Shown here piece by piece: positions 970-13,437 of a DNA stretch of 64,000 nucleotides. The notes under the pieces were generated by a model that ran no database searches, was not told the DNA's origin, and was given only the letters and a program-made list of their open reading frames with translations. The DNA is from a virus. Lineage: Duplodnaviria > Heunggongvirae > Uroviricota > Caudoviricetes. The position numbers were made by a program, and so were the translations under genes. The stretch lies in IMG/VR virus record IMGVR_UViG_3300033153_011579, one strand, 5' to 3'. Within the stretch, counting starts at the first letter, position 1, and every line of letters starts with the position of its first letter.

Positions 970-1139
970 GCGACAACCACATCTACGCCCCGGGGCGCTG
1001 CGTGAGCTGTGCACAGCGACGTTGGGACATCGAAGCCAAGAAGGCGGAGTGCGCGCTGGACCGTCCGGAATTCGATGCCGGTGACGACGGGAAGCGACGC
1101 GAGTGCTGGGAGTCGGGCAACGAGGACGAGGACCGGTAA
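966..1139 (+). CDS. Hypothetical small protein (57 aa, CxxC)
   Basis: MSDNHIYAPGRCVSCAQRRW...; ATGA overlap with integrase stop; its TAA is inside T1 copy 1. Confidence 0.5.
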   Translation: MSDNHIYAPGRCVSCAQRRWDIEAKKAECALDRPEFDAGDDGKRRECWESGNEDEDR

Positions 1140-1169
1140 GAGAGTGATGAATTCTCTGACACGGAGGGG
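1137..1169 (+). repeat. T1 element copy 1 (TAA / stem-loop / TGACACG / SD)
   Basis: TAAGAGAGTGATGAATTCTCTGACACGGAGGGG; TAA = stop of upstream ORF; ATG 1173. Confidence 0.9.
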
Positions 1170-1172
1170 ACG

Positions 1173-1730
1173 ATGAAGGTCGATATTCCAGACAACGTGA
1201 TCGAAAATCTCGTCGACGAAAAGGTCAAACAGAAAATGCGGGAGGTCGGATTCGATCTCGTAAAGTCTCTGAAAGGCTGGTTAGACCAGATCGACACTGT
1301 TGGTGAACTGTCTGCCTGGTCTACGGTGACTTACTATTTCATAGATACTTATCATCGGTTTTTCGAATTGCGGTGGGGGGAGTTTGAGCTGGATGGGCAA
1401 GCCGTCCCTCCTAAAACAGAAGTTGTCTTCGATGCTGGTTTAGACTCTGACGGTTTCGGCTTGGTCAAGCTATCGTCCGGTGAGTATGGATATTCTCAAT
1501 GTGAAAAACCGTGGATTCGTGTGAAGCCGACCGTTCACCGTTACGGCCCCGAAGAGAACCAGGTCGTCCTTGAGTATGACGAGCCGTGGTGTGATGGCAA
1601 GTGCCGGGTTCGCGTCGAAGACGGTGAACATATAACCCTCTGGCAGGAAGAAGAATTTAAAAAAGACTCAGAGGAGTTTGATGAGCTACGACAGGCCTGG
1701 GAGTCGATCATGAAACCGCCGGAAAAGTGA
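1173..1730 (+). CDS. Hypothetical protein (185 aa)
   Basis: ORF track; ATG 4 nt after T1 copy 1 SD; visibly lower GC than neighbours. Confidence 0.7.
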   Translation: MKVDIPDNVIENLVDEKVKQKMREVGFDLVKSLKGWLDQIDTVGELSAWSTVTYYFIDTYHRFFELRWGEFELDGQAVPPKTEVVFDAGLDSDGFGLVKLSSGEYGYSQCEKPWIRVKPTVHRYGPEENQVVLEYDEPWCDGKCRVRVEDGEHITLWQEEEFKKDSEEFDELRQAWESIMKPPEK

Positions 1731-1731
1731 C

Positions 1732-1766
1732 TGTAAGGGAATGCGCAATTCTCTGACACGGAGGAG
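1732..1766 (+). repeat. T1 element copy 2
   Basis: TGTAAGGGAATGCGCAATTCTCTGACACGGAGGAG; left arm AGGGAAT pairs with ATTCTCT only via G-U. Confidence 0.9.
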
Positions 1767-1769
1767 CGG

Positions 1770-2021
1770 ATGAGCTACGGAAGAACACCATACTACATCC
1801 TCAACATGATCAATTCGGACTGTGTTCACTTCTGGTGTGAGCTCGGAGAGGTTCTCGTGCCACAGCGCGCTGTCGACCAGTTTTGTGTCGTCCGCGTGCT
1901 GAACCCAGACGAGCTCATCCATGCTTTTCGCTGGTTCGAGGAACAGCGCCCGGACTGGGAGGACCTCCGCGAAGACTTTGTGGCAGCGCTCCGCAAAATA
2001 GCAGACGAGATAGAACGGTAA
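1770..2021 (+). CDS. Hypothetical protein (83 aa)
   Basis: ATG 4 nt after T1 copy 2 SD; TAA is inside T1 copy 3. Confidence 0.65.
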   Translation: MSYGRTPYYILNMINSDCVHFWCELGEVLVPQRAVDQFCVVRVLNPDELIHAFRWFEEQRPDWEDLREDFVAALRKIADEIER

Positions 2022-2050
2022 GGGAATGCGGAATTCTCTGACACGGAGGA
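2019..2050 (+). repeat. T1 element copy 3
   Basis: TAAGGGAATGCGGAATTCTCTGACACGGAGGA; TAA = stop of upstream ORF. Confidence 0.9.
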
Positions 2051-2054
2051 GACG

Positions 2055-2465
2055 ATGAACAAAGCAACCAAGGCACTCAAGACTCTCCGGGCTGTAAGTC
2101 GACCAGGTAGCCCGACGCGCCAGGCTGCCGTTCTAGGGTTGGCTGAAATTGAGAGGCTACGAAAGCAACGTGACGAAGCTCGACGTGACCACGCTGTTCC
2201 GGGGATGTACGCTCTCGGCTACGCGCTGTTCTACTTCCAGTTCAGTAACCGCGATCACGACTATGGAGATCAGGTCGGCCGCGTCCACGCTCTCTGTGAG
2301 CGCTGGGTGGATCTCCGGGCACGAGAGCACGCCGCGATGCTACAGGAGTTCGACCTCAACGAAGATCCAGACGACAAGAAGTGGGAAGCCTTCCTGCAGG
2401 GGTGGGCTCCAGAGTGGGACAAGCTCCTGGAAGACATCGACGACGAGTGCGAGAACCTGTGCTGA
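2055..2465 (+). CDS. Hypothetical protein (136 aa)
   Basis: ATG 5 nt after T1 copy 3; stop TGA 5 nt before T1 copy 4. Confidence 0.65.
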   Translation: MNKATKALKTLRAVSRPGSPTRQAAVLGLAEIERLRKQRDEARRDHAVPGMYALGYALFYFQFSNRDHDYGDQVGRVHALCERWVDLRAREHAAMLQEFDLNEDPDDKKWEAFLQGWAPEWDKLLEDIDDECENLC

Positions 2466-2470
2466 GGGGC

Positions 2471-2505
2471 TGTAAGAGAATGCGGATTTTTCTGACACGG
2501 AGGAG
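2471..2505 (+). repeat. T1 element copy 4
   Basis: TGTAAGAGAATGCGGATTTTTCTGACACGGAGGAG. Confidence 0.85.
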
Positions 2506-2508
2506 TTG

Positions 2509-2712
2509 ATGGAGTATTTCTCGACACTGTTTAACATCATGCTCGGCGCGCTCGGTATCTTGGGACTCCTTGTTGGAGGGGGGATCTTTATTGTGGGCAT
2601 CGCGGCGACTATAGTGGAGGAAAAGGCTAGATTCTTGTTGCTGTGCCCGATTGGATTTTTGGCCGGGTGCAGCGGATTAGCCTGGTTCGTCACGGTGGTG
2701 AAGTATCTGTAA
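2509..2712 (+). CDS. Small membrane protein (67 aa, 2 hydrophobic helices)
   Basis: MEYFSTLFNIMLGALGILGLLVGGGIFIVGIAATIV...; ATG 4 nt after SD; TAA inside T1 copy 5. Confidence 0.6.
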   Translation: MEYFSTLFNIMLGALGILGLLVGGGIFIVGIAATIVEEKARFLLLCPIGFLAGCSGLAWFVTVVKYL

Positions 2713-2739
2713 GAGAATGTAGAGTTCTCTGACGAGGAG
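2708..2739 (+). repeat. T1 element copy 5 (TGAC-GAGGAG variant)
   Basis: TGTAAGAGAATGTAGAGTTCTCTGACGAGGAG; TAA = stop of upstream ORF. Confidence 0.85.
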
Positions 2740-2745
2740 CGGATT

Positions 2746-3075
2746 ATGACTGTCGAAGAAACAAGCGAAGAGCTGGCGCTGGAGGGACGATCGGTGGTCA
2801 TCGAGGTGACCCGCTTTCCCAAGGGCACATCCCGCGGCCGGGTGACATCGCTCGCCGTCGGCATCGACCCCGAGGTGAAGGAGGGGGACGAGGCCGTCGA
2901 TGTGTCTCCCGCCCTCGTGGTCGACGCGCTGATCTACGCCCTGAAGCTGAACTACGACGCTGAGAGCCAGCACGGATCGGACGAGACCGCCGAGGAGTAC
3001 GTCGAGGACGTGGCGCGGATCCTGCTGTCGCAGATCGAGAACGATGAGCCGAGCTCGCTCAGGAGGGTCCACTGA
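2746..3075 (+). CDS. Hypothetical protein, paralogue A of 5953..6282 (109 aa)
   Basis: MTVEETSEELALEGRSVVIEVTRFPKGTSRGRVTSLAVGI...; near-identical second copy 3.2 kb downstream. Confidence 0.75.
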   Translation: MTVEETSEELALEGRSVVIEVTRFPKGTSRGRVTSLAVGIDPEVKEGDEAVDVSPALVVDALIYALKLNYDAESQHGSDETAEEYVEDVARILLSQIENDEPSSLRRVH

Positions 3076-3085
3076 CACGGAGAAG
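3073..3085 (+). repeat. Stemless T1 3' half (TGACACGGAGAAG)
   Basis: TGA of TGACACG is the stop of 2746..3075; GGAGAAG serves ATG 3089. Confidence 0.75.
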
Positions 3086-3088
3086 AAA

Positions 3089-3280
3089 ATGACTATGCTG
3101 ACCGCCTATATCGTTCTGGGGGTGCTCGTGCTGGGAGCTATCGGTACCGGTATCTGGGCCAAGCTCACTGGTGATCCGGTCCCTGTGATTCTTTGCGCCC
3201 TACTGATCGCGGCGGCGGCGGCGCTGTTGAACATCCCGTCGAGCAGGTTCGCCAAGTCCAAGAAGGAGCTCGACCGATGA
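3089..3280 (+). CDS. Small membrane protein (63 aa)
   Basis: MTMLTAYIVLGVLVLGAIGTGIWAKL...LCALLIAAAAALLNI; two hydrophobic helices. Confidence 0.6.
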   Translation: MTMLTAYIVLGVLVLGAIGTGIWAKLTGDPVPVILCALLIAAAAALLNIPSSRFAKSKKELDR

Positions 3281-3519
3281 AAAGATTCAAACTTCACCAG
3301 CGAGTCCGCGTGACCGAGGGCGAGCTCGTCGGCCGATTCGGAGCCGTCTGGCGGTGTCGTCGAGCCGATGATGCGGCATGGATCGCGATGGACGAAGACA
3401 TCCCGGAGTCGCTGCGACAGTTTCCAGCAAACGACGCACACGGCCGCGGTAACCACGTGATCCTCTGGCCGGACCAATGCGAGAGGATCACCAAAGCGCC
3501 GAAGCTGAAGGCTGTGTGA
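3277..3519 (+). CDS. Hypothetical protein (80 aa)
   Basis: MKRFKLHQRVRVTEGELVGRFGAVW...; ATGA overlap with upstream stop; GC-rich third positions. Confidence 0.55.
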   Translation: MKRFKLHQRVRVTEGELVGRFGAVWRCRRADDAAWIAMDEDIPESLRQFPANDAHGRGNHVILWPDQCERITKAPKLKAV

Positions 3520-3851
3520 TGATTCGAAACGGCGACAAACCAGGTGAGCGACGGTTAGCTCTTCCGATCCACTTCCGTGGGCCGACCAGGTGCCTCGGGG
3601 TGGAGGGGACCGTCGATGACGACTACAACGTGGTTCCAGTAGGTCGAGCTCGAGCTTGCGTGCTGAAGGACCTCTGCATCCGCTATCGGGACCGAGAAGA
3701 CTATGGACCGGCGACCCCCTGGTACTCCGAGTGTCCTTACGACTGGCAACGGATGATCTGTACGGAATATCAAACTTCGTGGAGAAATCGAGGGCCGGTG
3801 ATGGACCGTTTGGTAGACATCTACGCCGCGATGCCAGCGAGGGAGAAGTAG
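3519..3851 (+). CDS. Hypothetical Cys/Trp-rich protein (110 aa)
   Basis: TGATG coupling to upstream gene; MIRNGDKPGERRLALPIHF...; preferred over overlapping frame 3656-3853. Confidence 0.45.
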   Translation: MIRNGDKPGERRLALPIHFRGPTRCLGVEGTVDDDYNVVPVGRARACVLKDLCIRYRDREDYGPATPWYSECPYDWQRMICTEYQTSWRNRGPVMDRLVDIYAAMPAREK

Positions 3852-3853
3852 TC

Positions 3854-4339
3854 TTGGTTGAAATCACACACGACCGCCTCGTGAAAGCTGCAGCTATCTG
3901 GCTCGGCCAGAAGCATCGAGTGGTCTCCACCGAGCTCGTCTGCAGTACCGTCTCAGAGAACGCCGATGCTATCGGATGGGACGGTTACGGCAGGTGCATG
4001 GTCATCGAGTGCAAGGTCAGCCGCTCAGATTTTCTCGCCAACAAGCACAAACCACACGAGATCGTCGGTGACTCCATGGGGAACGAGCGCTGGTTCATGA
4101 CACCACCTGGTCTTGTCGAGCCAAAGGAGTTGCCGCGCAGCCACGGGCTCCTCGAGTACACGCCCAGTGGCCACGGGTCCGGCTACTTCATCCGCAAGGT
4201 CAAGAAAGCTCGGCCGCGGAAGAGGACGGTCGACCGGCTTTGGAACGAGAACCGAACACTGGTCGCCATCGCAGGCCGTGCTCTCGAGGCCGCTTCGAGG
4301 CTCAAGCCGCTCTGGCTCGGTGACGGCGAGGACGAGTAA
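3854..4339 (+). CDS. MmcB-like PD-(D/E)XK nuclease-fold protein (about 161 aa)
   Basis: ENADAIGWDGYGRCMVIECKVSRSDFLANKHK...RWFMTPPGLV motif pattern; TTG start 5 nt after GGGAGAAG; TAA in T1 copy 6. Confidence 0.55.
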   Translation: MVEITHDRLVKAAAIWLGQKHRVVSTELVCSTVSENADAIGWDGYGRCMVIECKVSRSDFLANKHKPHEIVGDSMGNERWFMTPPGLVEPKELPRSHGLLEYTPSGHGSGYFIRKVKKARPRKRTVDRLWNENRTLVAIAGRALEAASRLKPLWLGDGEDE

Positions 4340-4369
4340 GAGAATGCCGGATTCTATGACACGGAGGAG
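4337..4369 (+). repeat. T1 element copy 6
   Basis: TAAGAGAATGCCGGATTCTATGACACGGAGGAG; 28 nt upstream (CGGTGACGGCGAGGACGAG) also shared with copy 17. Confidence 0.9.
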
Positions 4370-4374
4370 TGAAG

Positions 4375-4581
4375 ATGGGCGTGCGAACAAAAAAGTTGGC
4401 TGAATGGAAACACGCTGCCATCGAGGCGTTCTACCGACTAGATAGCCTCGTCAATGACAGCGAGTGTGACAACGCAGAGGAACCATACTCCGATTGGCAG
4501 CCGTGCGAGGATGGGTGCAACTACTGTGACGATCGCGAGGCGAGGGACAGGATCGCCCAGCTCATGGCCAAGGACCAATAG
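4375..4581 (+). CDS. Hypothetical Cys-rich protein (68 aa)
   Basis: MGVRTKKLAEWKHAAIEAF...CEDGCNYCDD; ATG 5 nt after SD. Confidence 0.6.
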   Translation: MGVRTKKLAEWKHAAIEAFYRLDSLVNDSECDNAEEPYSDWQPCEDGCNYCDDREARDRIAQLMAKDQ

Positions 4582-4583
4582 GC

Positions 4584-4617
4584 TGTAAGAGAGTGATAGA
4601 TTCTCTGACACGGAGGA
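4584..4617 (+). repeat. T1 element copy 7
   Basis: TGTAAGAGAGTGATAGATTCTCTGACACGGAGGA. Confidence 0.9.
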
Positions 4618-4651
4618 TAAGTGGATCGACGGCAAGTACAAGGAATCCGGC

Positions 4652-4744
4652 ATGGACATCGATGGCAACCTCGACCGCGAAGTTGCGATCTTCCACCTGA
4701 CCGGTAAGGGGCGGGAGGCCGCGAAAAGCGATGAGGAAAAATGA
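4652..4744 (+). CDS. Tiny ORF, 5' end unresolved (30 aa from first ATG)
   Basis: High-GC3 frame KWIDGKYKESGMDIDGNLDREVAIFHLTGKGREAAKSDEEK* is open from 4589 but has no ATG/GTG/TTG before 4652. Confidence 0.3.
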   Translation: MDIDGNLDREVAIFHLTGKGREAAKSDEEK

Positions 4745-4845
4745 AAGAGACAATTGTCGAAATCATGTTTGGGTATCTGTATTTTGCGTTGGGTGGGGGT
4801 GCCGTCGCCTATGTGTGGTGGATGAGTAGCACTTTTGGAGGATGA
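4741..4845 (+). CDS. Small hydrophobic peptide (34 aa)
   Basis: MKETIVEIMFGYLYFALGGGAVAYVWWMSSTFGG*; ATGA overlap with upstream stop. Confidence 0.35.
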   Translation: MKETIVEIMFGYLYFALGGGAVAYVWWMSSTFGG

Positions 4846-4846
4846 G

Positions 4847-5050
4847 ATGGACAACCCCGACCTGTACTGCGTGAAGTGCTCGATCGGACTTGGCTTCGGT
4901 CCGCGCGCAACCATCGACAAGAAGGATTACTGCAACGGCTGCGCTGTCTACTTGCTACGCGCCCGCGTGGCCGAACTAGAATCTCAACCGGCGCAGACGA
5001 TGCCTGTCAAACGCACCGTGCGCGAGGCGGTGAACGATGATGTTGATTAG
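4847..5050 (+). CDS. Zinc-ribbon protein (67 aa)
   Basis: MDNPDLYCVKCS...DYCNGCAVYLLRARVAELE; GGAGGA 4 nt upstream; RARVAELE shared with 6829..7152. Confidence 0.55.
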   Translation: MDNPDLYCVKCSIGLGFGPRATIDKKDYCNGCAVYLLRARVAELESQPAQTMPVKRTVREAVNDDVD

Positions 5051-5339
5051 AGCAATCGGCAGCTCCCTGCTCGCAGTGGCGAGCATGACTATCCGTTGGA
5101 TTGCGGCCGACCTTCTAAGGAGTAAAGGAAAACACATGAGATCAACAACAATAGAAAAGATGTGTCAGGCAGCATCGGTACTCGACCGGGAGAAGTTTGA
5201 TGCTCTCGCCGAAGACCTTTTCGACGAACTGGCGGCTTCTACGACTCGGATGTCAGCAGCTATTCACAATTCGTACTGTCCGAAGTGCCTCGAAAAACAA
5301 CTCATAATCGACGACCTGCGGATCGTCGATCCTGACTGA
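5037..5339 (+). CDS. Hypothetical protein (100 aa; alternative start 5136)
   Basis: ORF track; hydrophobic N-terminus; internal ATG 5136 has AAGGAG/AAAGGAA upstream; AT-richer than neighbours. Confidence 0.4.
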   Translation: MMLIRAIGSSLLAVASMTIRWIAADLLRSKGKHMRSTTIEKMCQAASVLDREKFDALAEDLFDELAASTTRMSAAIHNSYCPKCLEKQLIIDDLRIVDPD

Positions 5340-5342
5340 TGA

Positions 5343-5357
5343 GGAATGACACGTTCC
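5343..5357 (+). repeat. T2 hairpin copy a (GGAA-TGACACG-TTCC)
   Basis: GGAATGACACGTTCC immediately after stop of 5037..5339 and 20 nt before T1 copy 8. Confidence 0.8.
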
Positions 5358-5376
5358 TTACGAAGAAAACGAATTT

Positions 5377-5412
5377 TGTAAGAGAACCCCAAGATTCTCT
5401 GACATGGAGGAG
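5377..5412 (+). repeat. T1 element copy 8 (TGACATG variant)
   Basis: TGTAAGAGAACCCCAAGATTCTCTGACATGGAGGAG. Confidence 0.85.
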
Positions 5413-5418
5413 ATAGTG

Positions 5419-5682
5419 ATGTTCGACGATTGGTCAACTTGGCAACTAGTACTGACCGGTGTCTTCTACTTTTTTCTGTGTATGCTGATCGGATTTCTTG
5501 CCACAGCCGTCCCAGCCTGGGTGCAGCTGTGGAGGGTCAAACAAGAATGTCGGAGTCGGGTAGCTCAAGCCAATCGAAGGTTTGATCTGTCTACTCGTGA
5601 TTTGTGTAAGAGAATGTCGGTTTCTCTGACACGGAGAAGAGAATGGGAACGGAAAAAGATCAAGACAACGTCAGGCACCTGA
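5419..5682 (+). CDS. Membrane protein (87 aa) reading through T1 copy 9
   Basis: MFDDWSTWQLVLTGVFYFFLCMLIGFLATAVPAWV...; TAA of copy 9 is out of frame so the ORF overlaps the next gene by 40 nt. Confidence 0.5.
   Translation: MFDDWSTWQLVLTGVFYFFLCMLIGFLATAVPAWVQLWRVKQECRSRVAQANRRFDLSTRDLCKRMSVSLTRRREWERKKIKTTSGT
5605..5639 (+). repeat. T1 element copy 9
   Basis: TGTAAGAGAATGTCGGTTTCTCTGACACGGAGAAG. Confidence 0.9.
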
Positions 5683-5945
5683 ACCAGGGTGAGCAGGCTT
5701 TTGCCGATCTGATCTCTGTCCTCTCCGACGGGAAGGTCTCCCGCGTCGTGGTGGCCTACTACTGCGAGGAGGACGAGGACGAGGAAGCTGGCTGGTCCTA
5801 CGTCCGGGCCTCGAGACCACCGAGCCCCATCGGTAGCGCCATCGTAGAGGATGTTGGAGCCGCGTCCTTGTTATCCTTGTACGTCAGAGACTGGTACGAC
5901 TCCGCCATGGCGACCGAGACAACCCACGAGGTGCCGCGGAAGTGA
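5643..5945 (+). CDS. Hypothetical acidic protein (100 aa)
   Basis: ATG 4 nt after T1 copy 9; MGTEKDQDNVRHLNQGEQAF...CEEDEDEEAGW. Confidence 0.55.
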   Translation: MGTEKDQDNVRHLNQGEQAFADLISVLSDGKVSRVVVAYYCEEDEDEEAGWSYVRASRPPSPIGSAIVEDVGAASLLSLYVRDWYDSAMATETTHEVPRK

Positions 5946-5952
5946 GGACAAG

Positions 5953-6282
5953 ATGGCTGTTGAGGAAACAACTGAAGAGCTGGCCCTGGAGGGACGCTCG
6001 GTGGTCATCGAGGTGACCCGCTTTCCCAAGGGCACATCCCGCGGCCGGGTGACATCGCTAGCCGTCGGCATCGAGCCCGACGTGAAGAATGGGGGCGACC
6101 CCGTCGATGTGTCTCCGGCCCTCGTGGTCGACGCGCTGATCTACGCCCTGAAGCTGAACTACGACGCCGAGAGCCAGCACGGGTCAAACGAGACGGCCGA
6201 GGACTACGTCGAGGACGTGGCGCGGATCCTGCTGTCGCAGATCGAGAACGACGAGCCGAGCTCGCTCATGCGGGTTCACTGA
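5953..6282 (+). CDS. Hypothetical protein, paralogue B of 2746..3075 (109 aa)
   Basis: MAVEETTEELALEGRSVVIEVTRFPKGTSRGRVTSLAVGI...; stop TGA lies in TGACACG. Confidence 0.75.
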   Translation: MAVEETTEELALEGRSVVIEVTRFPKGTSRGRVTSLAVGIEPDVKNGGDPVDVSPALVVDALIYALKLNYDAESQHGSNETAEDYVEDVARILLSQIENDEPSSLMRVH

Positions 6283-6292
6283 CACGGAGGGG
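6280..6292 (+). repeat. Stemless T1 3' half (TGACACGGAGGGG)
   Basis: TGA of TGACACG is the stop of 5953..6282; SD serves ATG 6296. Confidence 0.75.
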
Positions 6293-6295
6293 AAG

Positions 6296-6493
6296 ATGAG
6301 CCTGTTTTTTACGACGACAATTCGCGAGGATGTTGAGATCGAGGTCGATGTGGAGTGCTCGAGGTGTGGAGCCGCTCTCACGGCAACATCCAGAAGCGAA
6401 CACATCGGCTCCCACGATGAAAACCACCGGCTGGTGATCCACCCGTGCACCACCTGCTACCCGGTTGGCGCGACGGATACCGAGAGCTCGTAA
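6296..6493 (+). CDS. Zinc-ribbon protein (65 aa)
   Basis: ...VECSRCGAAL...HPCTTCYP; TAA inside T1 copy 10. Confidence 0.55.
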   Translation: MSLFFTTTIREDVEIEVDVECSRCGAALTATSRSEHIGSHDENHRLVIHPCTTCYPVGATDTESS

Positions 6494-6523
6494 GAGAATG
6501 TGCGTTTCTCTGACACGGAGGAG
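6491..6523 (+). repeat. T1 element copy 10
   Basis: TAAGAGAATGTGCGTTTCTCTGACACGGAGGAG; TAA = stop of upstream ORF. Confidence 0.9.
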
Positions 6524-6529
6524 TGGCAA

Positions 6530-6802
6530 ATGAATAAAGAGAAGAAACTCAAGAAGCTCGGGATCCCAGACAAGACCGTAACCTGGGAAGAGTTCAAGGA
6601 ACTCCCGCAAACGCGTGGTGAAGGGATCTCCTTTAAAGCGCAAGGTGTTGGGGACTGGAAGGGTGAGTGGTTCTGGTTTGAGTCGCTAGGGGTGGTTGAG
6701 GTCGACCGCGCCTTGGCCGATGGCGAGGTTATCAGAGGAATGAAGGTCAACGCTGGGAACTGGCACAGGCTTGTTGTCGTTCCTCATAATTTTCCTCGCT
6801 GA
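6530..6802 (+). CDS. Hypothetical protein (90 aa)
   Basis: MNKEKKLKKLGIPDKTVTWEEF...; ATG 6 nt after SD (track ORF start 6500 lies in the hairpin loop). Confidence 0.6.
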   Translation: MNKEKKLKKLGIPDKTVTWEEFKELPQTRGEGISFKAQGVGDWKGEWFWFESLGVVEVDRALADGEVIRGMKVNAGNWHRLVVVPHNFPR

Positions 6803-6807
6803 CGACC

Positions 6808-6843
6808 TGTAAGAGAATGGAGCGTTCTATGACAGAGAAAGAG
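6808..6843 (+). repeat. T1 element copy 11 (degenerate 3' half)
   Basis: TGTAAGAGAATGGAGCGTTCTATGACAGAGAAAGAG. Confidence 0.7.
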
Positions 6844-7152
6844 ATCAAGCCGAAGATGGTGGATGGCGAGGCGGTGTGTTCTAAAAACTGTCCGCGTTAT
6901 GGGATTGAGCCATGCATGGGGCTTGTTGATTTATCCTCATGCGCCCCCTACTACCGCGCCCGTGTCGCCGAGCTCGAGGCACAGATTTCAAGAATCAGCG
7001 ATACGATCTACCGGGGTGCTCCGCTGTCGTGGGCAAAGGCTGAATTTCACGAGGTCGTGAGCGCCTGGGAGCTGGATCTCTGTATCGCTCTGAACTTATG
7101 CGGCTTCCGCGACGCCCTTGAGCATATTAAGGCGAAGAAAGATTCAGAGTAA
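6829..7152 (+). CDS. Hypothetical protein (about 107 aa; start uncertain 6817/6829/6856)
   Basis: ...CSKNCPRYG...APYYRARVAELEAQISR; TAA inside T1 copy 12. Confidence 0.5.
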   Translation: MTEKEIKPKMVDGEAVCSKNCPRYGIEPCMGLVDLSSCAPYYRARVAELEAQISRISDTIYRGAPLSWAKAEFHEVVSAWELDLCIALNLCGFRDALEHIKAKKDSE

Positions 7153-7180
7153 GAGAATTTTACGTTCTCTGACACGGAGA
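7150..7180 (+). repeat. T1 element copy 12
   Basis: TAAGAGAATTTTACGTTCTCTGACACGGAGA; TAA = stop of upstream ORF. Confidence 0.9.
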
Positions 7181-7185
7181 AAAAG

Positions 7186-7674
7186 ATGAAGACACAAAAA
7201 GAGATTGCAGACCGAGTGAGCAAGTTAGGCAAATCAGACTTCTTCGGGTTCAGGGCAGAGGTACTGATCGGCTACTTGGGTATGGAACTGCTGGTGCCGT
7301 TCTTGAAGGAGGGTGCCCGCAAGCGGTTTGAAGAAGACAAGGAGAATCCCTGGACTGACCCGGTTTTCACAGAAGATGAGGTCAAGAAGGACATGCTCGA
7401 CTATCTCAAATTCGCTTTTGAGAAGTGTTTAGACCACCGTGGTATCTCCGCGAACCGGAGCATCGAGAAACTCGTTGAGTGGGCGTGGATTCTGGGGAGG
7501 GACGACCTGGTGGAGTTCGCAGGAGAGGCAGGCAACTTCCGAAATTACGGTGCGCCGGTTCTAAAGAAATTCGCTGAGGGGTTCGAGATAGAGCTGCCCG
7601 AGGACGAGCGGTTTCACCGAATGGCTCGTGGAGAGCGCTGCGGAGCGGACTACGCTTGCGGTTGTAACGAGTGA
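7186..7674 (+). CDS. Hypothetical protein (162 aa)
   Basis: ORF track; ATG after T1 copy 12 SD. Confidence 0.7.
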   Translation: MKTQKEIADRVSKLGKSDFFGFRAEVLIGYLGMELLVPFLKEGARKRFEEDKENPWTDPVFTEDEVKKDMLDYLKFAFEKCLDHRGISANRSIEKLVEWAWILGRDDLVEFAGEAGNFRNYGAPVLKKFAEGFEIELPEDERFHRMARGERCGADYACGCNE

Positions 7675-7677
7675 GCT

Positions 7678-7712
7678 TGTAAGAGAATTTTGCATTCTCT
7701 GACACGGAGAAG
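7678..7712 (+). repeat. T1 element copy 13
   Basis: TGTAAGAGAATTTTGCATTCTCTGACACGGAGAAG; preceded by shared TGAGCT. Confidence 0.9.
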
Positions 7713-8054
7713 ATGATGAATCAGGATAGAGTAATCGAAATAGTGAGGGGCTGGCGGTGTCCTCACTGCTTCATGGAGTACGAGAACATTAAGGAAGCCC
7801 AGGAGTGCGATCAGCAGTGCTCCGCCTTCCTCGACGATGCTCCCCCAACTTGTGACTGGTGTGATCAGCCGGGAGAACACGAGAGTCCAGTCGAGGGGCT
7901 ACACTTTCTCATCAACTGTGGGCACTACATGTACGGTATGCATGAGGACGATAGTGGGGACGCTGAGAACGACCGCTACGAGACCGTCCAGCGGTTACGC
8001 GGTGTCGAGGCCCTTCCATGGGAGTACCCAGACGTCGGAGTGAAAGATGAATAA
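7713..8054 (+). CDS. Cys-rich (zinc-binding-like) protein (113 aa)
   Basis: WRCPHCFMEY...ECDQQC...CDWCDQPGEH. Confidence 0.6.
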   Translation: MMNQDRVIEIVRGWRCPHCFMEYENIKEAQECDQQCSAFLDDAPPTCDWCDQPGEHESPVEGLHFLINCGHYMYGMHEDDSGDAENDRYETVQRLRGVEALPWEYPDVGVKDE

Positions 8055-8376
8055 GCCAGAAGAAGACTTTGGTCTCGTGGTCGAACTTCACGGCCCGCGC
8101 GTGATTCATCGGTGCCGAGACTGTGATCACAGGTTCGGGTCTCCGCCCAGGCATTGGCAATGTAAGGCGCACCCGCGTCACCTGGAAAACCCAGAATATG
8201 CTCTTCATTTGGTCGGAAGAGAGTTGGATGAAAGCGAGCTCACAGACGGATATGGGTTTTGTGACCTCATCCGTGTGGCGACACAGCCGACGTGTCCTGA
8301 GTTCGAGCCGCGTAGACCGGCGAGTGCTGGATTTGTGTCTTGGTGGAGAAGGCTGTTGGCGAAGTTCGGTCTGTAA
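8047..8376 (+). CDS. Cys-rich protein (109 aa)
   Basis: HRCRDCDHRFG...; 8-nt overlap with upstream gene, GGAG upstream; TAA in T1 copy 14. Confidence 0.55.
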   Translation: MNKPEEDFGLVVELHGPRVIHRCRDCDHRFGSPPRHWQCKAHPRHLENPEYALHLVGRELDESELTDGYGFCDLIRVATQPTCPEFEPRRPASAGFVSWWRRLLAKFGL

Positions 8377-8400
8377 GAGAATTTATGATTCTCTGACACG
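8372..8400 (+). repeat. T1 element copy 14 (no canonical GGAGG after TGACACG)
   Basis: TGTAAGAGAATTTATGATTCTCTGACACG then AGATGGGTAGATG. Confidence 0.85.
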
Positions 8401-8410
8401 AGATGGGTAG

Positions 8411-8650
8411 ATGAAGAAGCGAGCAAAACGAGTCGAAAGATTCCATGTGAGGTGTCCCTTTTGTGGCGATCTCGTGGACATCATGACGTCGCTCTCTTGG
8501 TGCTCTGGGTGTTTTGTCGAGTGGTACCGTACACGAGCTTGCAATTACATTTTTGATACCGAGAGGAAGACCGAGAGGTTCGTGTGGGCCAAGGCGGTGC
8601 AGAAGTCCGGAGGCATGCGGATCGCCTCAGCCAACGAGGACGATGAGTAA
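8411..8650 (+). CDS. Zinc-ribbon protein (79 aa)
   Basis: VRCPFCGDLVDIMTSLSWCSGCFVEWY; TAA in T1 copy 15. Confidence 0.6.
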   Translation: MKKRAKRVERFHVRCPFCGDLVDIMTSLSWCSGCFVEWYRTRACNYIFDTERKTERFVWAKAVQKSGGMRIASANEDDE

Positions 8651-8679
8651 GAGAATTCAGGATTCTCTGACACGGAGGA
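8648..8679 (+). repeat. T1 element copy 15
   Basis: TAAGAGAATTCAGGATTCTCTGACACGGAGGA; perfect 7-bp stem, 5-nt loop. Confidence 0.95.
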
Positions 8680-8683
8680 TGAG

Positions 8684-9052
8684 ATGTGGAACAGAGTAAT
8701 ATTCGCGGGCTGGATGGTAGTCGCGTTGCTGATCGGGGTCCTATTCGGCGCAGGCCTCTACCAAACCTGGCCGGCTAATCCCGACGTGATCGAGGACACC
8801 GAACCCTCAAGCGGTCGGCCCCTAGAGATCGAGATCTGCTCAGACGCGGCTGACCACTGCAACGATTCGGAGGACTGCGTAGAGGACGTATTCTCGCGGT
8901 GTCTTTACCACCTCGGGACGCCAACAATGTCCGACTGTCACGAAGAGTGCGCAGGGATCATGAAGGAGCTAAGCGACAAGAACGATGCGTGCTGGGATAG
9001 CTTCATGAACTGCCAAGACGTACTCGACGAGGTGTGGCGAGAAGCGCTGTAA
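8684..9052 (+). CDS. N-terminally anchored Cys-rich protein (122 aa), paralogue of 32459..32836
   Basis: TM VIFAGWMVVALLIGVLFGAGLY; TMSDCHEECAGIMKELSDKNDACWDSFMNC aligns with TIETCREECAEIVRDLSRANDDLWERWLAC. Confidence 0.65.
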   Translation: MWNRVIFAGWMVVALLIGVLFGAGLYQTWPANPDVIEDTEPSSGRPLEIEICSDAADHCNDSEDCVEDVFSRCLYHLGTPTMSDCHEECAGIMKELSDKNDACWDSFMNCQDVLDEVWREAL

Positions 9053-9086
9053 GAGAATTGAGAATTCTCTGACACGGAAAAGAGGA
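9048..9086 (+). repeat. T1 element copy 16
   Basis: TGTAAGAGAATTGAGAATTCTCTGACACGGAAAAGAGGA. Confidence 0.9.
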
Positions 9087-9091
9087 ACTCA

Positions 9092-9349
9092 GTGACTGAC
9101 GACATCATCCAGATTCGAACCGCGCCAGGATGCCGCAAGGAAAAGCCGATGCGGTATCTGGTGTTCCGCATCGAGTGCTACTACCCAGCGGGTGGGTGGG
9201 ACGACCTCGAAGCGACGACCAACGACAAGGAAACCGCAATCGAACTGGCCAAGAAAATTGAGGCTGAATTCAGCAGCGGCGAGGTGATTGACCTCGATAC
9301 TGGGACTCGCCTTTACCCGCCGTGGCGCGGTGACGACGAGGACGAGTAA
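9092..9349 (+). CDS. Hypothetical protein (85 aa, GTG start)
   Basis: GTG 5 nt after AAGAGGA; ends ...PWRGDDEDE*; TAA in T1 copy 17. Confidence 0.55.
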   Translation: MTDDIIQIRTAPGCRKEKPMRYLVFRIECYYPAGGWDDLEATTNDKETAIELAKKIEAEFSSGEVIDLDTGTRLYPPWRGDDEDE

Positions 9350-9380
9350 GAGAATTGGCGATTCTCTGACACGGAGAGGA
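9347..9380 (+). repeat. T1 element copy 17
   Basis: TAAGAGAATTGGCGATTCTCTGACACGGAGAGGA; upstream CGGTGACGACGAGGACGAG matches copy 6 flank. Confidence 0.95.
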
Positions 9381-9382
9381 AG

Positions 9383-9634
9383 ATGACCAGGCTCGAACAG
9401 TACCAAAAACTCCACGAGATCTTCCTCGTGAACAGGTTTTCGGACGTGTTGACCGAGGCTGAAGAAGACGACCTGCTCTACGCCCTGGACGCCGTTTGGT
9501 GGCAGATGACGAGTGCGGAGCACGCCGAAGCGGAGAAGGACACCTGGATGTGGAATCGGGTGCTGCGGGGATGGTTCGCGCACATCGATCCCGCTGGCGG
9601 AACGAACAACCCAGTGATGAAGTGGAGCTTGTAA
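9383..9634 (+). CDS. Hypothetical protein (83 aa)
   Basis: ORF track; TAA in T1 copy 18. Confidence 0.6.
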   Translation: MTRLEQYQKLHEIFLVNRFSDVLTEAEEDDLLYALDAVWWQMTSAEHAEAEKDTWMWNRVLRGWFAHIDPAGGTNNPVMKWSL

Positions 9635-9666
9635 GAGAACTGACAATTCCCTTACACGAGGAGGAG
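9630..9666 (+). repeat. T1 element copy 18 (divergent right arm, TTACACG)
   Basis: TGTAAGAGAACTGACAATTCCCTTACACGAGGAGGAG. Confidence 0.8.
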
Positions 9667-9669
9667 AGG

Positions 9670-9945
9670 ATGAGGCGGAATCGCAGAACAATGGTGGCCA
9701 CAAGCACGATAGGTTCGTGGATGAGCCGAGTGTATAGACTGGAAGCTGAGAACGAAAAGCTTCGTACTGATCTTCTCTTCGCCAAAGCAAAGATTAAGGC
9801 GATCCGGGTACGTATTGAGATGGTCGATGATGGGGAGAGCTGTTACCAGTCACACGACGCGGTACCAGACATTCTCAACATTCTGCGTGGGGGGACGCTT
9901 TGGACAGGAAGTCCACAGTACGCCGCCGTCAAAAAACGCCTGTAA
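9670..9945 (+). CDS. Hypothetical coiled-coil protein (91 aa)
   Basis: MRRNRRTMVATSTIGSWMSRVYRLEAENEKLRTDLLFAKAKIK...; TAA in T1 copy 19. Confidence 0.55.
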   Translation: MRRNRRTMVATSTIGSWMSRVYRLEAENEKLRTDLLFAKAKIKAIRVRIEMVDDGESCYQSHDAVPDILNILRGGTLWTGSPQYAAVKKRL

Positions 9946-9975
9946 GAGAACCGACTGACTCTATTACACGAGGAG
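9941..9975 (+). repeat. T1 element copy 19 (divergent)
   Basis: TGTAAGAGAACCGACTGACTCTATTACACGAGGAG. Confidence 0.75.
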
Positions 9976-9982
9976 ATAATAG

Positions 9983-10465
9983 ATGCACGGGCTAGGAAGA
10001 AGAGGAAACCGCCGGAAGAAACGCCTGAAGAAACATCGAGGCCGTACTCCTGCTAGAGTTTCGGCATCCAGCAAGGTCTACAACACTACCTCCAGGACCG
10101 TCGTCAAGACTGCTGCGCCCAGCACCGTCGTCACGTTCGACGACGTAGCTGATCTGGCCGAGGCGACCCTCGACGAGGAGAACGTGACCGCGCTGTTCAT
10201 GCGGTACGACAATAACATCAGGCCAACGCTCTTCTACACTGCCTACGCGGAAACTCCGTCTGGGCGCGTCTTCCTCCAGGCAGTCCATGTACTGTCGAAA
10301 GATGAGATCTACGAGAACCCAAAACACCCGCTGCCCTGTTACAGGGACGGCAAGGACATGAGGTGCCCCTATCCGCAGGAGCACATCATCGACAGGGCCG
10401 TTGAGTACTGGGAGTCCCGAGGGATTGACGTCTACGAGGGCACGGTGGAGATGAAGATTTTGTAA
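9983..10465 (+). CDS. Hypothetical protein with basic N-terminus (160 aa)
   Basis: MHGLGRRGNRRKKRLKKHRGRTPARV...; TAA in T1 copy 20. Confidence 0.6.
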   Translation: MHGLGRRGNRRKKRLKKHRGRTPARVSASSKVYNTTSRTVVKTAAPSTVVTFDDVADLAEATLDEENVTALFMRYDNNIRPTLFYTAYAETPSGRVFLQAVHVLSKDEIYENPKHPLPCYRDGKDMRCPYPQEHIIDRAVEYWESRGIDVYEGTVEMKIL

Positions 10466-10494
10466 GAGAACCTTCTATTCCCTGACATGGAGGA
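10461..10494 (+). repeat. T1 element copy 20
   Basis: TGTAAGAGAACCTTCTATTCCCTGACATGGAGGA. Confidence 0.8.
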
Positions 10495-10499
10495 TTGAG

Positions 10500-10733
10500 A
10501 TGAAAACGGGAGAACGCGAACTGTTCAAGGTAACCGGACGACCTGGTCGCCGTATCTGGCGCAAACAAGCCGGAGCGCGAGGGTACCGACCCATCTGGAC
10601 CTCCGACTACGTTGAGGAGGTTGACGGGAAGTTCTTCTGCACGATTCGGAGTGAGTCCGAGAACGACCTGCCGATGGAGCAGCACGATAACCTTCAAGAC
10701 GCGCTCGAGTGGTTGATGAGGGATCGGACGTAA
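10500..10733 (+). CDS. Hypothetical protein (77 aa)
   Basis: ORF track; TAA in T1 copy 21. Confidence 0.6.
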   Translation: MKTGERELFKVTGRPGRRIWRKQAGARGYRPIWTSDYVEEVDGKFFCTIRSESENDLPMEQHDNLQDALEWLMRDRT

Positions 10734-10762
10734 GAGAATCAACGATTCTCTGACATGGAGGA
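10731..10762 (+). repeat. T1 element copy 21
   Basis: TAAGAGAATCAACGATTCTCTGACATGGAGGA. Confidence 0.9.
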
Positions 10763-10766
10763 CAGG

Positions 10767-10961
10767 ATGAAACGCACGCTGTTGACCGAGATCGACTTTG
10801 ACCGTCAGAGCTGTCGGGTCATCGAGGCGGAGATCATCAAGTGCAACACCTGTAAGGGTAGCGGTTGGAAAGAGGTTTCGACGCACCGCGGAAACTACAG
10901 ACGCCGCTGTGCTCAGTGCCACGGCACAGGCAAGGTGCTGGTGGGACCGAAGGTTCGATGA
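10767..10961 (+). CDS. DnaJ-type zinc-finger-like protein (64 aa)
   Basis: Two CxxCxGxG motifs: CNTCKGSG and CAQCHGTG. Confidence 0.6.
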   Translation: MKRTLLTEIDFDRQSCRVIEAEIIKCNTCKGSGWKEVSTHRGNYRRRCAQCHGTGKVLVGPKVR

Positions 10962-10962
10962 C

Positions 10963-10996
10963 TGTAAGAGAACAGACGATTCTCTGACACGAGGAG
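10963..10996 (+). repeat. T1 element copy 22
   Basis: TGTAAGAGAACAGACGATTCTCTGACACGAGGAG. Confidence 0.9.
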
Positions 10997-11002
10997 AGAA
11001 GG

Positions 11003-11254
11003 ATGAATTTCAGTAACGAGCAAATGACAGAGTGGCTGTCGGAGGTTCCGGAAGCTACCAGCGTACGCTGCGTGGCTATCCCTCCGTACATCAGTAAAGA
11101 GATGAAGGAGCGGCCAGTGATTCCGTGGGATCTGCTTACCCGAGAAGTCAACAACAAGATAGGTGATGGTGACCGCGTACTCGGGATTCGTGCTGCGGGG
11201 GCCAACTCCTACGGCAATTACTGGATCATCATTTGGGTTGGCAACAAAGAGTGA
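11003..11254 (+). CDS. Hypothetical protein (83 aa)
   Basis: ORF track; ATG after T1 copy 22 SD. Confidence 0.6.
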   Translation: MNFSNEQMTEWLSEVPEATSVRCVAIPPYISKEMKERPVIPWDLLTREVNNKIGDGDRVLGIRAAGANSYGNYWIIIWVGNKE

Positions 11255-11257
11255 GCT

Positions 11258-11290
11258 TGTAAGAGAAACTAATATTCTCTGACGGAGGAG
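11258..11290 (+). repeat. T1 element copy 23
   Basis: TGTAAGAGAAACTAATATTCTCTGACGGAGGAG; preceded by shared TGAGCT. Confidence 0.85.
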
Positions 11291-11293
11291 AGC

Positions 11294-11527
11294 ATGGACA
11301 ACGATACCAAAAGACTGTGTGGCAACTGCTTCTGGTTTGATCAAGAGCTCTGTCGACGACTGCCACCGCGCATGATTGACCAGGTAGATCTTTATGAAAA
11401 AGATAGTGAGTTCAACACCTGGAATGCCAGTTACGCAGACGACTACACCTCTTGGCCAGTTGTAGAAGAGAAAGCCTGGTGCGGAGAATGGCGATCGAAG
11501 GAAGACGGCTGGCCCGTCGGTAAGTAA
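11294..11527 (+). CDS. Cys-rich hypothetical protein (77 aa)
   Basis: CGNCFWFDQELCRRLPP...WCGEW; TAA in T1 copy 24. Confidence 0.6.
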   Translation: MDNDTKRLCGNCFWFDQELCRRLPPRMIDQVDLYEKDSEFNTWNASYADDYTSWPVVEEKAWCGEWRSKEDGWPVGK

Positions 11528-11556
11528 GAGAATCAAACATTCTCTGACACGAGGAG
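11525..11556 (+). repeat. T1 element copy 24
   Basis: TAAGAGAATCAAACATTCTCTGACACGAGGAG. Confidence 0.9.
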
Positions 11557-11559
11557 AAG

Positions 11560-11673
11560 ATGATGGAAATTCTAATTTTTTGGCTGTGCTTTTGTGGACT
11601 CGGAGCCGTTGGTATATTGGTAGCGTCCTTGGTGATCCTCAGTGAGGAACGTCAACGAAACGGTCGCCAGTAA
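11560..11673 (+). CDS. Small hydrophobic peptide (37 aa; below ORF-track cutoff)
   Basis: MMEILIFWLCFCGLGAVGILVASLVILSEERQRNGRQ*; exactly bounded by T1 copies 24 and 25. Confidence 0.4.
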   Translation: MMEILIFWLCFCGLGAVGILVASLVILSEERQRNGRQ

Positions 11674-11701
11674 GAGAATCAGCACGTTCCCTGAAAGGAA
11701 G
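11671..11701 (+). repeat. T1/T2 hybrid element (copy 25)
   Basis: TAAGAGAATCAGCACGTTCCCTGAAAGGAAG: T1 left half joined to the ACGTTCCCTGAAAGGA tail seen in T2 copy e. Confidence 0.8.
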
Positions 11702-11714
11702 ATTGGAGAACAAA

Positions 11715-11927
11715 ATGTCGAAGAACACGGTCACGCAGCACGTTTTGGTTGATTCCCATGTTGAGTGCTTCCCTGAGGAATTCCTCGAAGCACTTCTCGC
11801 AGTTTGTCCGGCTCCCTTGGCACCGGACAGTCTTAAACAACTCCGTGACATAGGGAGAGTCCAGTTGAGCCTCTGGCTTTCCCCGGAGGACTTGAAGCGC
11901 TGGACAGGTAAAGCGCCAGGGGAATGA
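11715..11927 (+). CDS. Hypothetical protein (70 aa)
   Basis: MSKNTVTQHVLVDSHVECFPEEF...; stop TGA lies in T2 copy b. Confidence 0.5.
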   Translation: MSKNTVTQHVLVDSHVECFPEEFLEALLAVCPAPLAPDSLKQLRDIGRVQLSLWLSPEDLKRWTGKAPGE

Positions 11928-11938
11928 CACTTTCCCTG
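11919..11938 (+). repeat. T2 hairpin copy b
   Basis: GGGGAATGACACTTTCCCTG; TGA = stop of upstream ORF. Confidence 0.8.
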
Positions 11939-11976
11939 TGCCTACACAACAACCGCCTAGTGGGGCAAGGAGTAGG

Positions 11977-12330
11977 ATGATGACAGAGCATACATTGACC
12001 GTTGGTGGAAGCGAGGTCGTGGTTTCGAGTAACCCTGTTTCAAGGGACCTTGTCGGCTCGGACCGCAGCTTCGGAGATGAACGCGCGCACCCATGTCCGA
12101 ACTGTAGCAAAAATAGTCTGCGCTACCATTTCCTCGACTACAGGCCTGCGCTGTCGTGGGCCTGCGTCGAGTGTGGCTATGCTGAGCACCCGCCGATTGA
12201 AAAGTTGGTTGCCGATGGGTACTCCCCGCAGAAGGTAGAGGAGGATTGGTCGACCTGCATTTACCCAAAGGAGTGGATGCTTTACTCCCCGCTTGAGCGG
12301 TTAGCGTCACCACAAACACGAAAGGATTAG
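11977..12330 (+). CDS. Zinc-ribbon protein (117 aa; track start 11938 is GTG)
   Basis: HPCPNCSKNS...WACVECGYAEHP; AAGGAG 6 nt before ATGATG. Confidence 0.5.
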   Translation: MMTEHTLTVGGSEVVVSSNPVSRDLVGSDRSFGDERAHPCPNCSKNSLRYHFLDYRPALSWACVECGYAEHPPIEKLVADGYSPQKVEEDWSTCIYPKEWMLYSPLERLASPQTRKD

Positions 12331-12334
12331 AACG

Positions 12335-12685: not shown

Positions 12686-12727
12686 TAAGGGTTATTGCAT
12701 CAGCTGCGGACCGTCGACCCTGTATGA

Positions 12728-12746
12728 GGAATGACACGTTCCCTGG
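12728..12746 (+). repeat. T2 hairpin copy c (in non-coding gap)
   Basis: GGAATGACACGTTCCCTGG. Confidence 0.8.
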
Positions 12747-12793
12747 TGGGAGAACGTCGAACTGGAGTGAGAGGAGTTTGAATGTTTAAAGCA

Positions 12794-12944: not shown

Positions 12945-12971
12945 GCACGCAGTCGGGGGAAGGAGAAAAGA

Positions 12972-13181: not shown

Positions 13182-13196
13182 TGACACGTTCCCTGG
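13179..13196 (+). repeat. T2 copy d (left arm missing)
   Basis: TGATGACACGTTCCCTGG. Confidence 0.65.
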
Positions 13197-13232
13197 TACC
13201 CCTATGCCCAAACACTAGGCAGGAGGAATGAG

Positions 13233-13423: not shown

Positions 13424-13437
13424 AAAGGAGAAGCCCG

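Follow-up and report, generated by a model that had tools for sequence, protein, structure and literature searches.

The mosaicism of tailed phages at gene boundaries is known from the modular theory of Susskind and Botstein and from comparisons of lambdoid phages and mycobacteriophages. The gain, loss, and copying of small orphan early genes are mostly ascribed to unspecified illegitimate recombination. To our knowledge, there are few clear cases of a conserved intergenic repeat as the joint, and the promoter-early stem-loop (PeSL) elements are the main example. Here, we analyzed a stretch of 64,000 nucleotides (nt) from an uncultivated virus of the Caudoviricetes (IMG/VR record IMGVR_UViG_3300033153_011579), called the window below. 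In this window an early gene for a protein of 109 amino acids (aa) is present in two similar copies, A and B, among small genes that are connected by an intergenic repeat, which we call T1.

Two described systems are closest to this locus. The closest in behaviour are the PeSL cassettes of T4-type phages (Arbiol et al. 2010, PMC2839356; Comeau et al. 2014, PMC4122927). PeSL elements contain a strong sigma-70-like early promoter (-35 box, -10 box, and AT-rich upstream region) and a stable stem-loop with terminator or attenuator function (PMC2839356). Crossovers in them have been located to the stretch between Shine-Dalgarno sequence, -10 box, and ATG, and recombination between neighbouring elements yields circular DNAs (PMC2839356). 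The closest in anatomy are the SAS and ESAS motifs of Cluster K mycobacteriophages, as the relevant passages of Pope et al. (2011, PMC3203893) present them. According to these passages, SAS is an asymmetric motif of ~12-13 base pairs (bp) with a Shine-Dalgarno sequence, GGGATAGGAGCCC, which lies 3-8 bp 5' of the starts of some genes, all in one orientation, and ESAS consists of imperfect inverted repeats with a variable spacer immediately 5' of some SAS motifs. The function of both is stated there as unknown, with a suggested role in translation initiation, and recombination is not mentioned in the same passages (PMC3203893).

The duplicated gene and the edges of the copied unit

Our analysis suggested that the gene pair arose when a single gene was copied by recombination at short conserved translation signals at gene borders, a reading to which we give a probability of roughly 0.55. 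We aligned the two copies, whose coordinates are listed in Table 1. Each is 330 nt long (109 codons plus TGA), and they are colinear and free of gaps. They differ at 26 nt (92.1% identity, blastn E ~1e-137), and their proteins differ at 11 of 109 residues. The initial annotation had described 109-aa twins that differ at a handful of positions; the twins are real, but 11 residues are more than a handful.

Outside the reading frame the similarity ends abruptly. In the 60 nt 5' of the two ATGs, 16 of 60 positions match, which is the random level. Behind the stop codons the first 7 nt (CACGGAG) are identical, and the following 53 nt match at 23 positions. As the initial annotation had stated, nucleotide similarity therefore runs from the ATG to just past the stop. 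Homology neither continues well past TGACACGGAG nor starts well before the ATG. The upstream contexts differ, again as described: a full T1 stands before copy A, and gene 5643..5945 stands before copy B, separated from it by a 7-nt spacer without T1. A plain segmental duplication was rejected, because the homology does not include the flanks (16/60 on the 5' side, background after 7 nt on the 3' side).

T1 is a repeat of ~40 nt that reaches from stop to start, TGTAAGAGAAT-N5-7-ATTCTCTGACA-CGGAGG-N4-7-ATG, which can also be written as (T)GTAAGAGAAT - 5-7 variable nt - ATTCTCTGACA - CGGAGG - 4-7 nt - ATG. The TAA within its GTAAGAG is often the stop codon of the preceding gene, and its GGAGG is the Shine-Dalgarno sequence of the following gene. 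Thus, T1 is a stop-to-start connector.

Copies A and B are each followed by half of this element. The exact sequence GACACGGAG plus a start codon, without the T1 5' arm, occurs only twice in the window, after copy A and after copy B, and in both half-elements the TGA of the motif is, in one and the same register, the stop codon of the copy. Most simply, the half-element is a shared derived feature that belongs to the copied unit. Homologues of the gene elsewhere end in CAC-TAA (contigs L003 and L012) or CAC-TGA (contig L004) without CACGGAG. Therefore, the gene natively ends in His-stop, and it acquired the motif in this lineage.

The initial annotation had taken the heptamer TGACACG as the unit and had placed the end of the duplication precisely there. 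We found that the relevant unit is the 11-12-nt Shine-Dalgarno half of T1. This half, CTGACACGGAGG, serves ~20 genes in the window as a generic ribosome-binding module. An end at the heptamer is not distinguishable from an end at the stop codon, because every T1 shares the sequence that follows. Over the 10 nt past CACGGAG, A and B match at 7/10 positions; unrelated T1 pairs match at 5.5/10 on average, and 26% of them reach at least 7. This similarity is not above the T1 background, and thus all sequence 3' of the stop is generic T1 and the 3' breakpoint can be placed only between the stop codon and about +17.

Locus A has a further property. The motifs CTGACGAGGAG (2729-2739) and CTGACACGGAG (3072-3082) flank a unit of spacer plus open reading frame (ORF), and deleting 2729-3071 would restore a canonical T1 before gene 3089. 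This is the form that would be expected of an insertion into the T1 core, in which case the empty A site would read GTAAGAGAATGTAGAGTTCT joined directly to CTGACACGGAGAAGAAAATG.

We propose that the small early gene would have been copied once within this lineage, or alternatively that the second copy would be an allele captured from a close relative. The copied tract consists of the ORF and at most the 7-nt Shine-Dalgarno core after the stop, which is the start-associated half of T1. The process may be the one that swaps gene cassettes between T1s in related phages. The 3' joint probably lies in the CTGACACGGAG(G) core or made use of it, whereas copy B is joined on its 5' side at an ordinary gene border without T1. 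Both copies would then have been kept as functionally diverging paralogues. As such, a duplication of this kind is nothing unusual in the evolution of phages.

Table 1. Coordinates of the duplicated genes, their connecting elements, and related features in the window and in contigs of relatives.
Sequence	Position	Strand	Feature	Remarks
Window	1136..14490	+	T1 array, n = 29	one orientation; each T1 between a small-gene stop and the next start
Window	2709..2745	+	full T1 5' of copy A	GTAAGAGAAT-GTAGAG-TTCTCTGAC-GAGGAG-CGGATT
Window	2729-2739		variant Shine-Dalgarno half CTGACGAGGAG	part of the T1 upstream of copy A
Window	2746..3075	+	copy A (P0001)	109-aa early protein, no assigned function
Window	3072..3082	+	half-element CTGACACGGAG without T1 5' arm	embeds copy A stop TGA; ribosome-binding site of gene 3089-3280
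Window	3089..3280	+	predicted membrane protein, 63 aa	3' of copy A; unrelated to the gene 3' of copy B
Window	5606..5642	+	full T1 5' of the 100-aa gene	heads the two-gene unit containing copy B
Window	5643..5945	+	100-aa gene	directly 5' of copy B
Window	5953..6282	+	copy B (P0002)	109-aa paralogue, 90% amino-acid identity to copy A
Window	6279..6289	+	half-element CTGACACGGAG without T1 5' arm	embeds copy B stop TGA; ribosome-binding site of gene 6296-6493
Window	6296..6493	+	Cys-rich protein, 65 aa	3' of copy B; gene ends in a full T1 at 6490
Window	12335..12685	+	probable third, distant paralogue, 116 aa	~25% identity, colinear over full length; hhalign
L009	1341-2032		shared two-gene module
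L010	466-1153		shared two-gene module
L011	1-768		shared two-gene module
L009-L011			one distant family member behind a full T1	short contigs; T1 present
L012			one family member, 5' of integrase	12.9-kilobase (kb) contig, integrase 61% identical; no T1
L004			one family member, overlapping the end of a 227-aa gene (window homologue 14493-15164)	short contig; no T1
L007/L013/L014			no family member in up to 13.8 kb	one phage; T1 present
L015/L016			no family member	short contigs; no T1

The contigs of relatives that we could inspect carry 0 or 1 copies of the family each, at a position that differs in each relative; these contigs are 0.6-14 kb long, so that absence is weak evidence. Therefore, the close A/B pair is specific to the lineage of the window. 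In IMG/VR no family member and no T1 array were found (30 isolated single matches, which were not opened, were taken as chance). The genome contigs yielded no relative and the metagenome contigs one, L007, and a megablast search of window positions 1-12000 against 50,697 phage records gave no match.

For the 100-aa gene before copy B only one other cluster was found. Unrelated genes stand behind its orthologues in L009 (84% identity) and L012 (54%); homology stops at the stop codon of the orthologue, and no T1 is present there. The 65-aa gene 3' of copy B showed no similarity to the gene after the L012 orthologue, a homology that would have fixed the ancestral arrangement of locus B.

We calculated the synonymous and nonsynonymous divergence between A and B (Nei-Gojobori method). 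The whole gene has 14 synonymous (Sd) and 12 nonsynonymous (Nd) differences, with proportions pS 0.169 and pN 0.049, distances dS 0.191 and dN 0.051, and a dN/dS of 0.27 (Fisher p-value = 0.0015). This ratio indicates that both copies are functional genes under purifying selection. The duplication had been called recent, but at a dS of 0.19 it is not especially so.

Loop codons 41-50 hold 7 of the 12 replacement changes, a concentration of ~13-fold (p-value = 2e-5), although this division into loop and rest was picked post hoc, with the data already seen. Within the loop, 6 of 10 residues have diverged between A and B (Sd 0, Nd 7, pS 0, pN 0.30), which is not significant alone (p-value = 0.29). 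The gene outside the loop has Sd 14, Nd 5, pS 0.183, pN 0.023, and a ratio of ~0.12 (p-value = 9e-6). The same loop is a variable, indel-bearing region in the family alignment. Most of the difference between A and B thus lies in a single loop, probably at the surface of the protein. This fits diverging paralogues and agrees with the suggestion of the initial annotation that two diverging alleles are selected. However, the divergence of the loop could also reflect relaxed constraint there.

Gene exchange at T1 and the rival explanations

We looked at joints in the related phages. Contigs L009, L010, and L011, which stem from three sequencing runs, share a module of 681-768 nt at 99.6-99.7% identity, with different flanks. 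Its order is T1 (loop CTGTTG), the 116-aa family member, a 76-aa gene, and T1 (loop CTGCGG). Between L009 and L010, the left break of the module lies at the 5' edge of T1 and the right break between the T1 loop and the 3' arm; between L009 and L011, the right break lies just past the Shine-Dalgarno core and ATG.

Similar patterns were found in the window. The window and L007 have 3 identical T1 loops in common, compared with 0.17 expected (P = 0.002). Consecutive T1s with matching loops stand in the same order in both (13738 and 13951 in the window, 4294 and 4586 in L007), and the ORF between them is unrelated (59 aa vs 85 aa, no BLASTP alignment). The window also holds another small duplication. 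Genes 3854-4339 (161 aa) and 9092-9349 (85 aa) are unrelated except for their last 10-18 codons and the next T1 (shared stretches 4270-4377 and 9280-9385, + strand), and their tails read ..PLWLGDGEDE and ..PPWRGDDEDE up to the stop. Acidic tails, such as NEDEDR and ANEDDE directly before the stop, are also present in several other genes that end in T1. A short coding tail 5' of T1 may spread along with it.

Judged from these comparisons, modules are exchanged in related phages with joints inside T1, and element-associated recombination is real in this phage group. This bears on the proposal of the initial annotation that TGACACG-associated recombination made the duplication. With T1 joints present in relatives, recombination at T1 is plausible for the 3' joint. 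Support for the proposal is partial, because the 5' joint of copy B has no T1. The 5' border of copy B, which is also mosaic in L009 and L012, has no T1, and therefore T1 is not required for gene-precise joints.

This border is one of several observations that weigh against recombination at the conserved signals. The motif CACGGAG is the generic ribosome-binding core of ~20 genes, so that the 3' breakpoint is not placeable within the 7-17 nt directly behind the stop codon, and the motif could already have stood at both recipient sites. No relative shows an unoccupied A or B locus on the contigs of 0.6-14 kb, and so the direction of copying (from A or from B) and its source (own genome or other phage) are not fixed. 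Finally, L009-L011 are short-read assemblies, in which chimeric joins at repeats are possible.

The strongest competitor, which we consider less probable, is random illegitimate recombination filtered by selection. It supposes that joints are seen at gene borders only since those elsewhere destroy genes, that T1 has no mechanistic part, and that TGACACGGAG is common to A and B only as the standard ribosome-binding site that any downstream gene needs. The missing T1 at the 5' joint of copy B is in accord with it, and so is the border after the 100-aa gene, which is a gene-precise mosaic joint without T1 in three phages. The similarity of A and B past CACGGAG, no higher than that of unrelated T1 copies, points the same way. 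L012, which is free of T1, also uses GACACGGAGG as a ribosome-binding site once. However, the half-elements are unique in the window and use their own TGA as the stop in the same register, for which an independent origin is less parsimonious. Moreover, the modules of L009-L011 break inside T1 on both sides, which is hard to achieve by selection alone at 99.6% identity.

At 8685-8712 of L012, the 100-aa orthologue ends in ..CATGACACGGAGGAGTAG GGT ATG. The T1 core is both coding sequence and ribosome-binding site there, and it may predate the palindrome part of T1.

Gene conversion was also considered, and we regard it as improbable. The duplication would then be older, with the copies kept at 92% by conversion confined to the ORF, and the flanks would never have been homologous or would have diverged long ago. 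The differences between A and B are indeed patchy, with identical runs of 62, 50, and 47 nt (permutation P = 0.0045), and the distant third paralogue gives the family a longer history in this genome. However, the patchiness at third codon positions alone is not significant (P = 0.10), and so gene conversion is not needed. The patches follow the conserved and variable regions of the protein, which uneven constraint explains, and the shared half-element past the stop is left unexplained by conversion.

Similarly improbable is a stronger form of the T1 connection, in which T1 is the dedicated joint of a phage cassette system. Its CTGAC(AC)GGAG core would be the preferred crossover or insertion site and would maybe be recognised by a protein. 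The recogniser might be one of the tyrosine-recombinase-like pair that brackets the array, or a palindrome-binding protein. If this were true, small ORFs would move as circles or patches, integron-like, in a phage early region, and the A/B pair would be a captured product, with the ORF inserted into the core at locus A.

An assembly artefact, in which two strain alleles of one gene were misplaced at two positions, is very improbable: although L002 ends ~150 nt past copy A and L001 ends ~1.9 kb past A and ~1 kb before B, each copy has unique, unrelated flanks on both sides, and the same contexts were assembled independently of the window in at least two further samples. In these two sister metagenomes, L001/L002 hold copy A and L005/L006 hold copy B in the same contexts at 99.9-100% identity, and L001 and L005 overlap consistently in the stretch between the copies. 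Therefore, the A/B pair is real.

The T1 repeat, the protein family, and other features of the window

We investigated what kind of element T1 could be. Its two arms make up an imperfect palindrome of 11 bp that contains a single A/G mismatch, and 11-bp arms with a 5-7-nt spacer are present at 29 of 31 sites. In 41 copies from three phages, the arms pair in 84.9% of cells with only one compensatory change, which is no better than in shuffled controls. Therefore, the arms are conserved as sequence. The predicted hairpins are weak (-8 to -13 kcal/mol, z-scores 0 to -2), and a T run is absent. A structured RNA family was rejected on these weak folding energies, on the lack of covariation beyond sequence conservation, and because Rfam gave no match at T1. 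T1 may act as an RNA hairpin beside the ribosome-binding site or as a protein-binding DNA palindrome.

Other functions were rejected as well. A sigma-70 promoter was excluded, with 4 promoter-like sites in 16.5 kb against 5.2 expected and none in a full T1. An intrinsic terminator was excluded, since terminator-like sites are not enriched and none stands at T1 on the + strand. An extracytoplasmic function (ECF) sigma promoter is unlikely from the sequence: known ECF promoters have a longer spacing than the ~14 nt from GTAAG to TCTGA, and transcription would have to start within the Shine-Dalgarno sequence. In relatives without T1 (L012, L015, and L016), the homologous genes stay tightly packed. 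Therefore, T1 was added in some lineages and is not needed for expression.

A gene of the sigma-70 family with regions 2 and 4 only (ECF-like) is located on L001 at 3433-4107, ~1.3-2.0 kb 5' of window position 1. Three other genes separate it from the integrase, which lies 3' of it, and it has the same direction as the T1 array.

Besides T1, the window has another small repeat, (G)GGAATGACACGTTCCC, on the + strand at 5343-5357, 11921-11935, 12728-12742, 13406-13420, and 13707-13721, with a related form at 13178-13196. It forms a hairpin of 5-6 bp with the loop GACAC, and its TGA is usually the stop of the preceding gene. This repeat also contains TGACACG, which explains the heptamer of the initial annotation. 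Hybrids of T1 and this repeat are present at 11670, 13951, and 14186 (loop ..CACG). A degenerate T1 lies at 6809-6842 (+), where the 3' arm reads TTCTATGACAGAG. The ATG inside this arm is the likely start of gene 6829-7152, whose L009 orthologue starts after a normal T1. A fluoride riboswitch model gave a weak match at 11920-11984 (+; 20.1 bits vs gathering 34, E 0.11), which is probably due to chance.

The 109-aa protein had no match in Pfam or PHROGs. Only 4 matches to it were found among 5.8 billion proteins, 2 of them A and B themselves. An exhaustive profile search of 1.84 billion representatives gave 5 proteins, adding P0005 (105 aa) and the distant P0007 (116 aa). The AlphaFold2 model, built from four sequences, has three strands followed by helices at low confidence (pLDDT 63.8), and Foldseek found no match below E = 1 in the PDB. 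Within the window, ORF 12335-12685 aligns with the family (hhalign probability 72%, E 3.4e-5; pairwise BLASTP E 0.001) and probably represents a third, distant paralogue of copies A and B, without T1 at its flanks.

Some further genes were noted. Two very divergent tyrosine-recombinase-like proteins bracket the T1 array at 82-969 and 15528-16487 (+), with 22% identity over a colinear alignment (E 9e-7). The one at 15528-16487 has no Pfam or PHROG hit and, by eye, appears to be without the C-terminal region of the catalytic Tyr. The ORF at 16484-17191 (-) would encode a repetitive protein rich in Asp and Thr; it contains long runs of 6-nt and 12-nt periodic repeats at 16889-17125, of the GTGTCGGTATCG type on the + strand. 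A gene of the adenylosuccinate synthetase family is located at 26262-27368 (-; Pfam PF00709, E 1e-39). Its best PHROG is phrog_1211, '2-aminooxy adenylosuccinate synthetase' (E 1e-51), which we read as PurZ-like, and the phage might make 2-aminoadenine DNA. The phage of L007, L013, and L014 has a gene similar to that of ribosomal protein S12 (PF00164; L007 2147-2531, L013 9849-10232, L014 6731-7114) two genes 3' of its integrase; this S12-like gene is absent from the window.

Comparison with known systems

We compared T1 with integrons, and this class was rejected. The consensus TGTAAGAGAAT..ATTCTCTGACA has neither the attC GTTRRRY core nor the R''/L''/L'/R' boxes, and it is only ~27 nt long. 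The 295-aa protein, co-directional with the array, has only a weak generic Phage_integrase match of 20.8 bits (cut-off 27.1) plus PHROG integrase hits, and the same integrase is also present in relatives that have no T1, which speaks against a connection.

The comparison with the mosaicism of tailed phages gave both likeness and difference. The joints fall exactly at gene borders, and small genes are gained, lost, and replaced between conserved neighbours. However, many of the joints here lie in a dedicated, highly conserved repeat and not at arbitrary borders.

In position and content, the full T1 resembles ESAS, and the half-elements after A and B resemble the SAS-only sites described in those passages of Pope et al. 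The motifs are different (CTGACACGGAGG vs GGGATAGGAGCCC), and the arms of the inverted repeats are 11 bp in T1 compared with the 17 bp given there. In contrast to SAS and ESAS as presented there, T1 usually supplies the stop (TAA) of the upstream gene. The megablast search mentioned above, with no match of window 1-12000 among the 50,697 phage records, showed no DNA similarity to deposited phages and no sign of kinship with Cluster K.

PeSLs and T1 are alike in that both are short conserved composite elements between small orphan genes of a hyperplastic early region. In both, insertions and replacements between relatives end in the elements, which gives them a 'linker' role in modular shuffling. 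The crossover zone of the PeSLs corresponds to the zone of the A/B 3' joint. However, T1 has no sigma-70-like promoter and no terminator-like stem-loop and carries a ribosome-binding site instead; its stem is AT-rich, 11 bp long with one mismatch, and weakly stable. There is no sequence similarity between T1 and the PeSLs, the phage group is another, and only one of the two sides of the A/B pair is bordered by a T1 half.

The T1 phage group provides a second case, unrelated to PeSLs, of an intergenic repeat that serves as a joint. Because T1 carries the ribosome-binding site and often the upstream stop, an exchange inside T1 would automatically keep both neighbours translatable. In the A/B pair, such shuffling would have led to two paralogues that were retained and are diverging.

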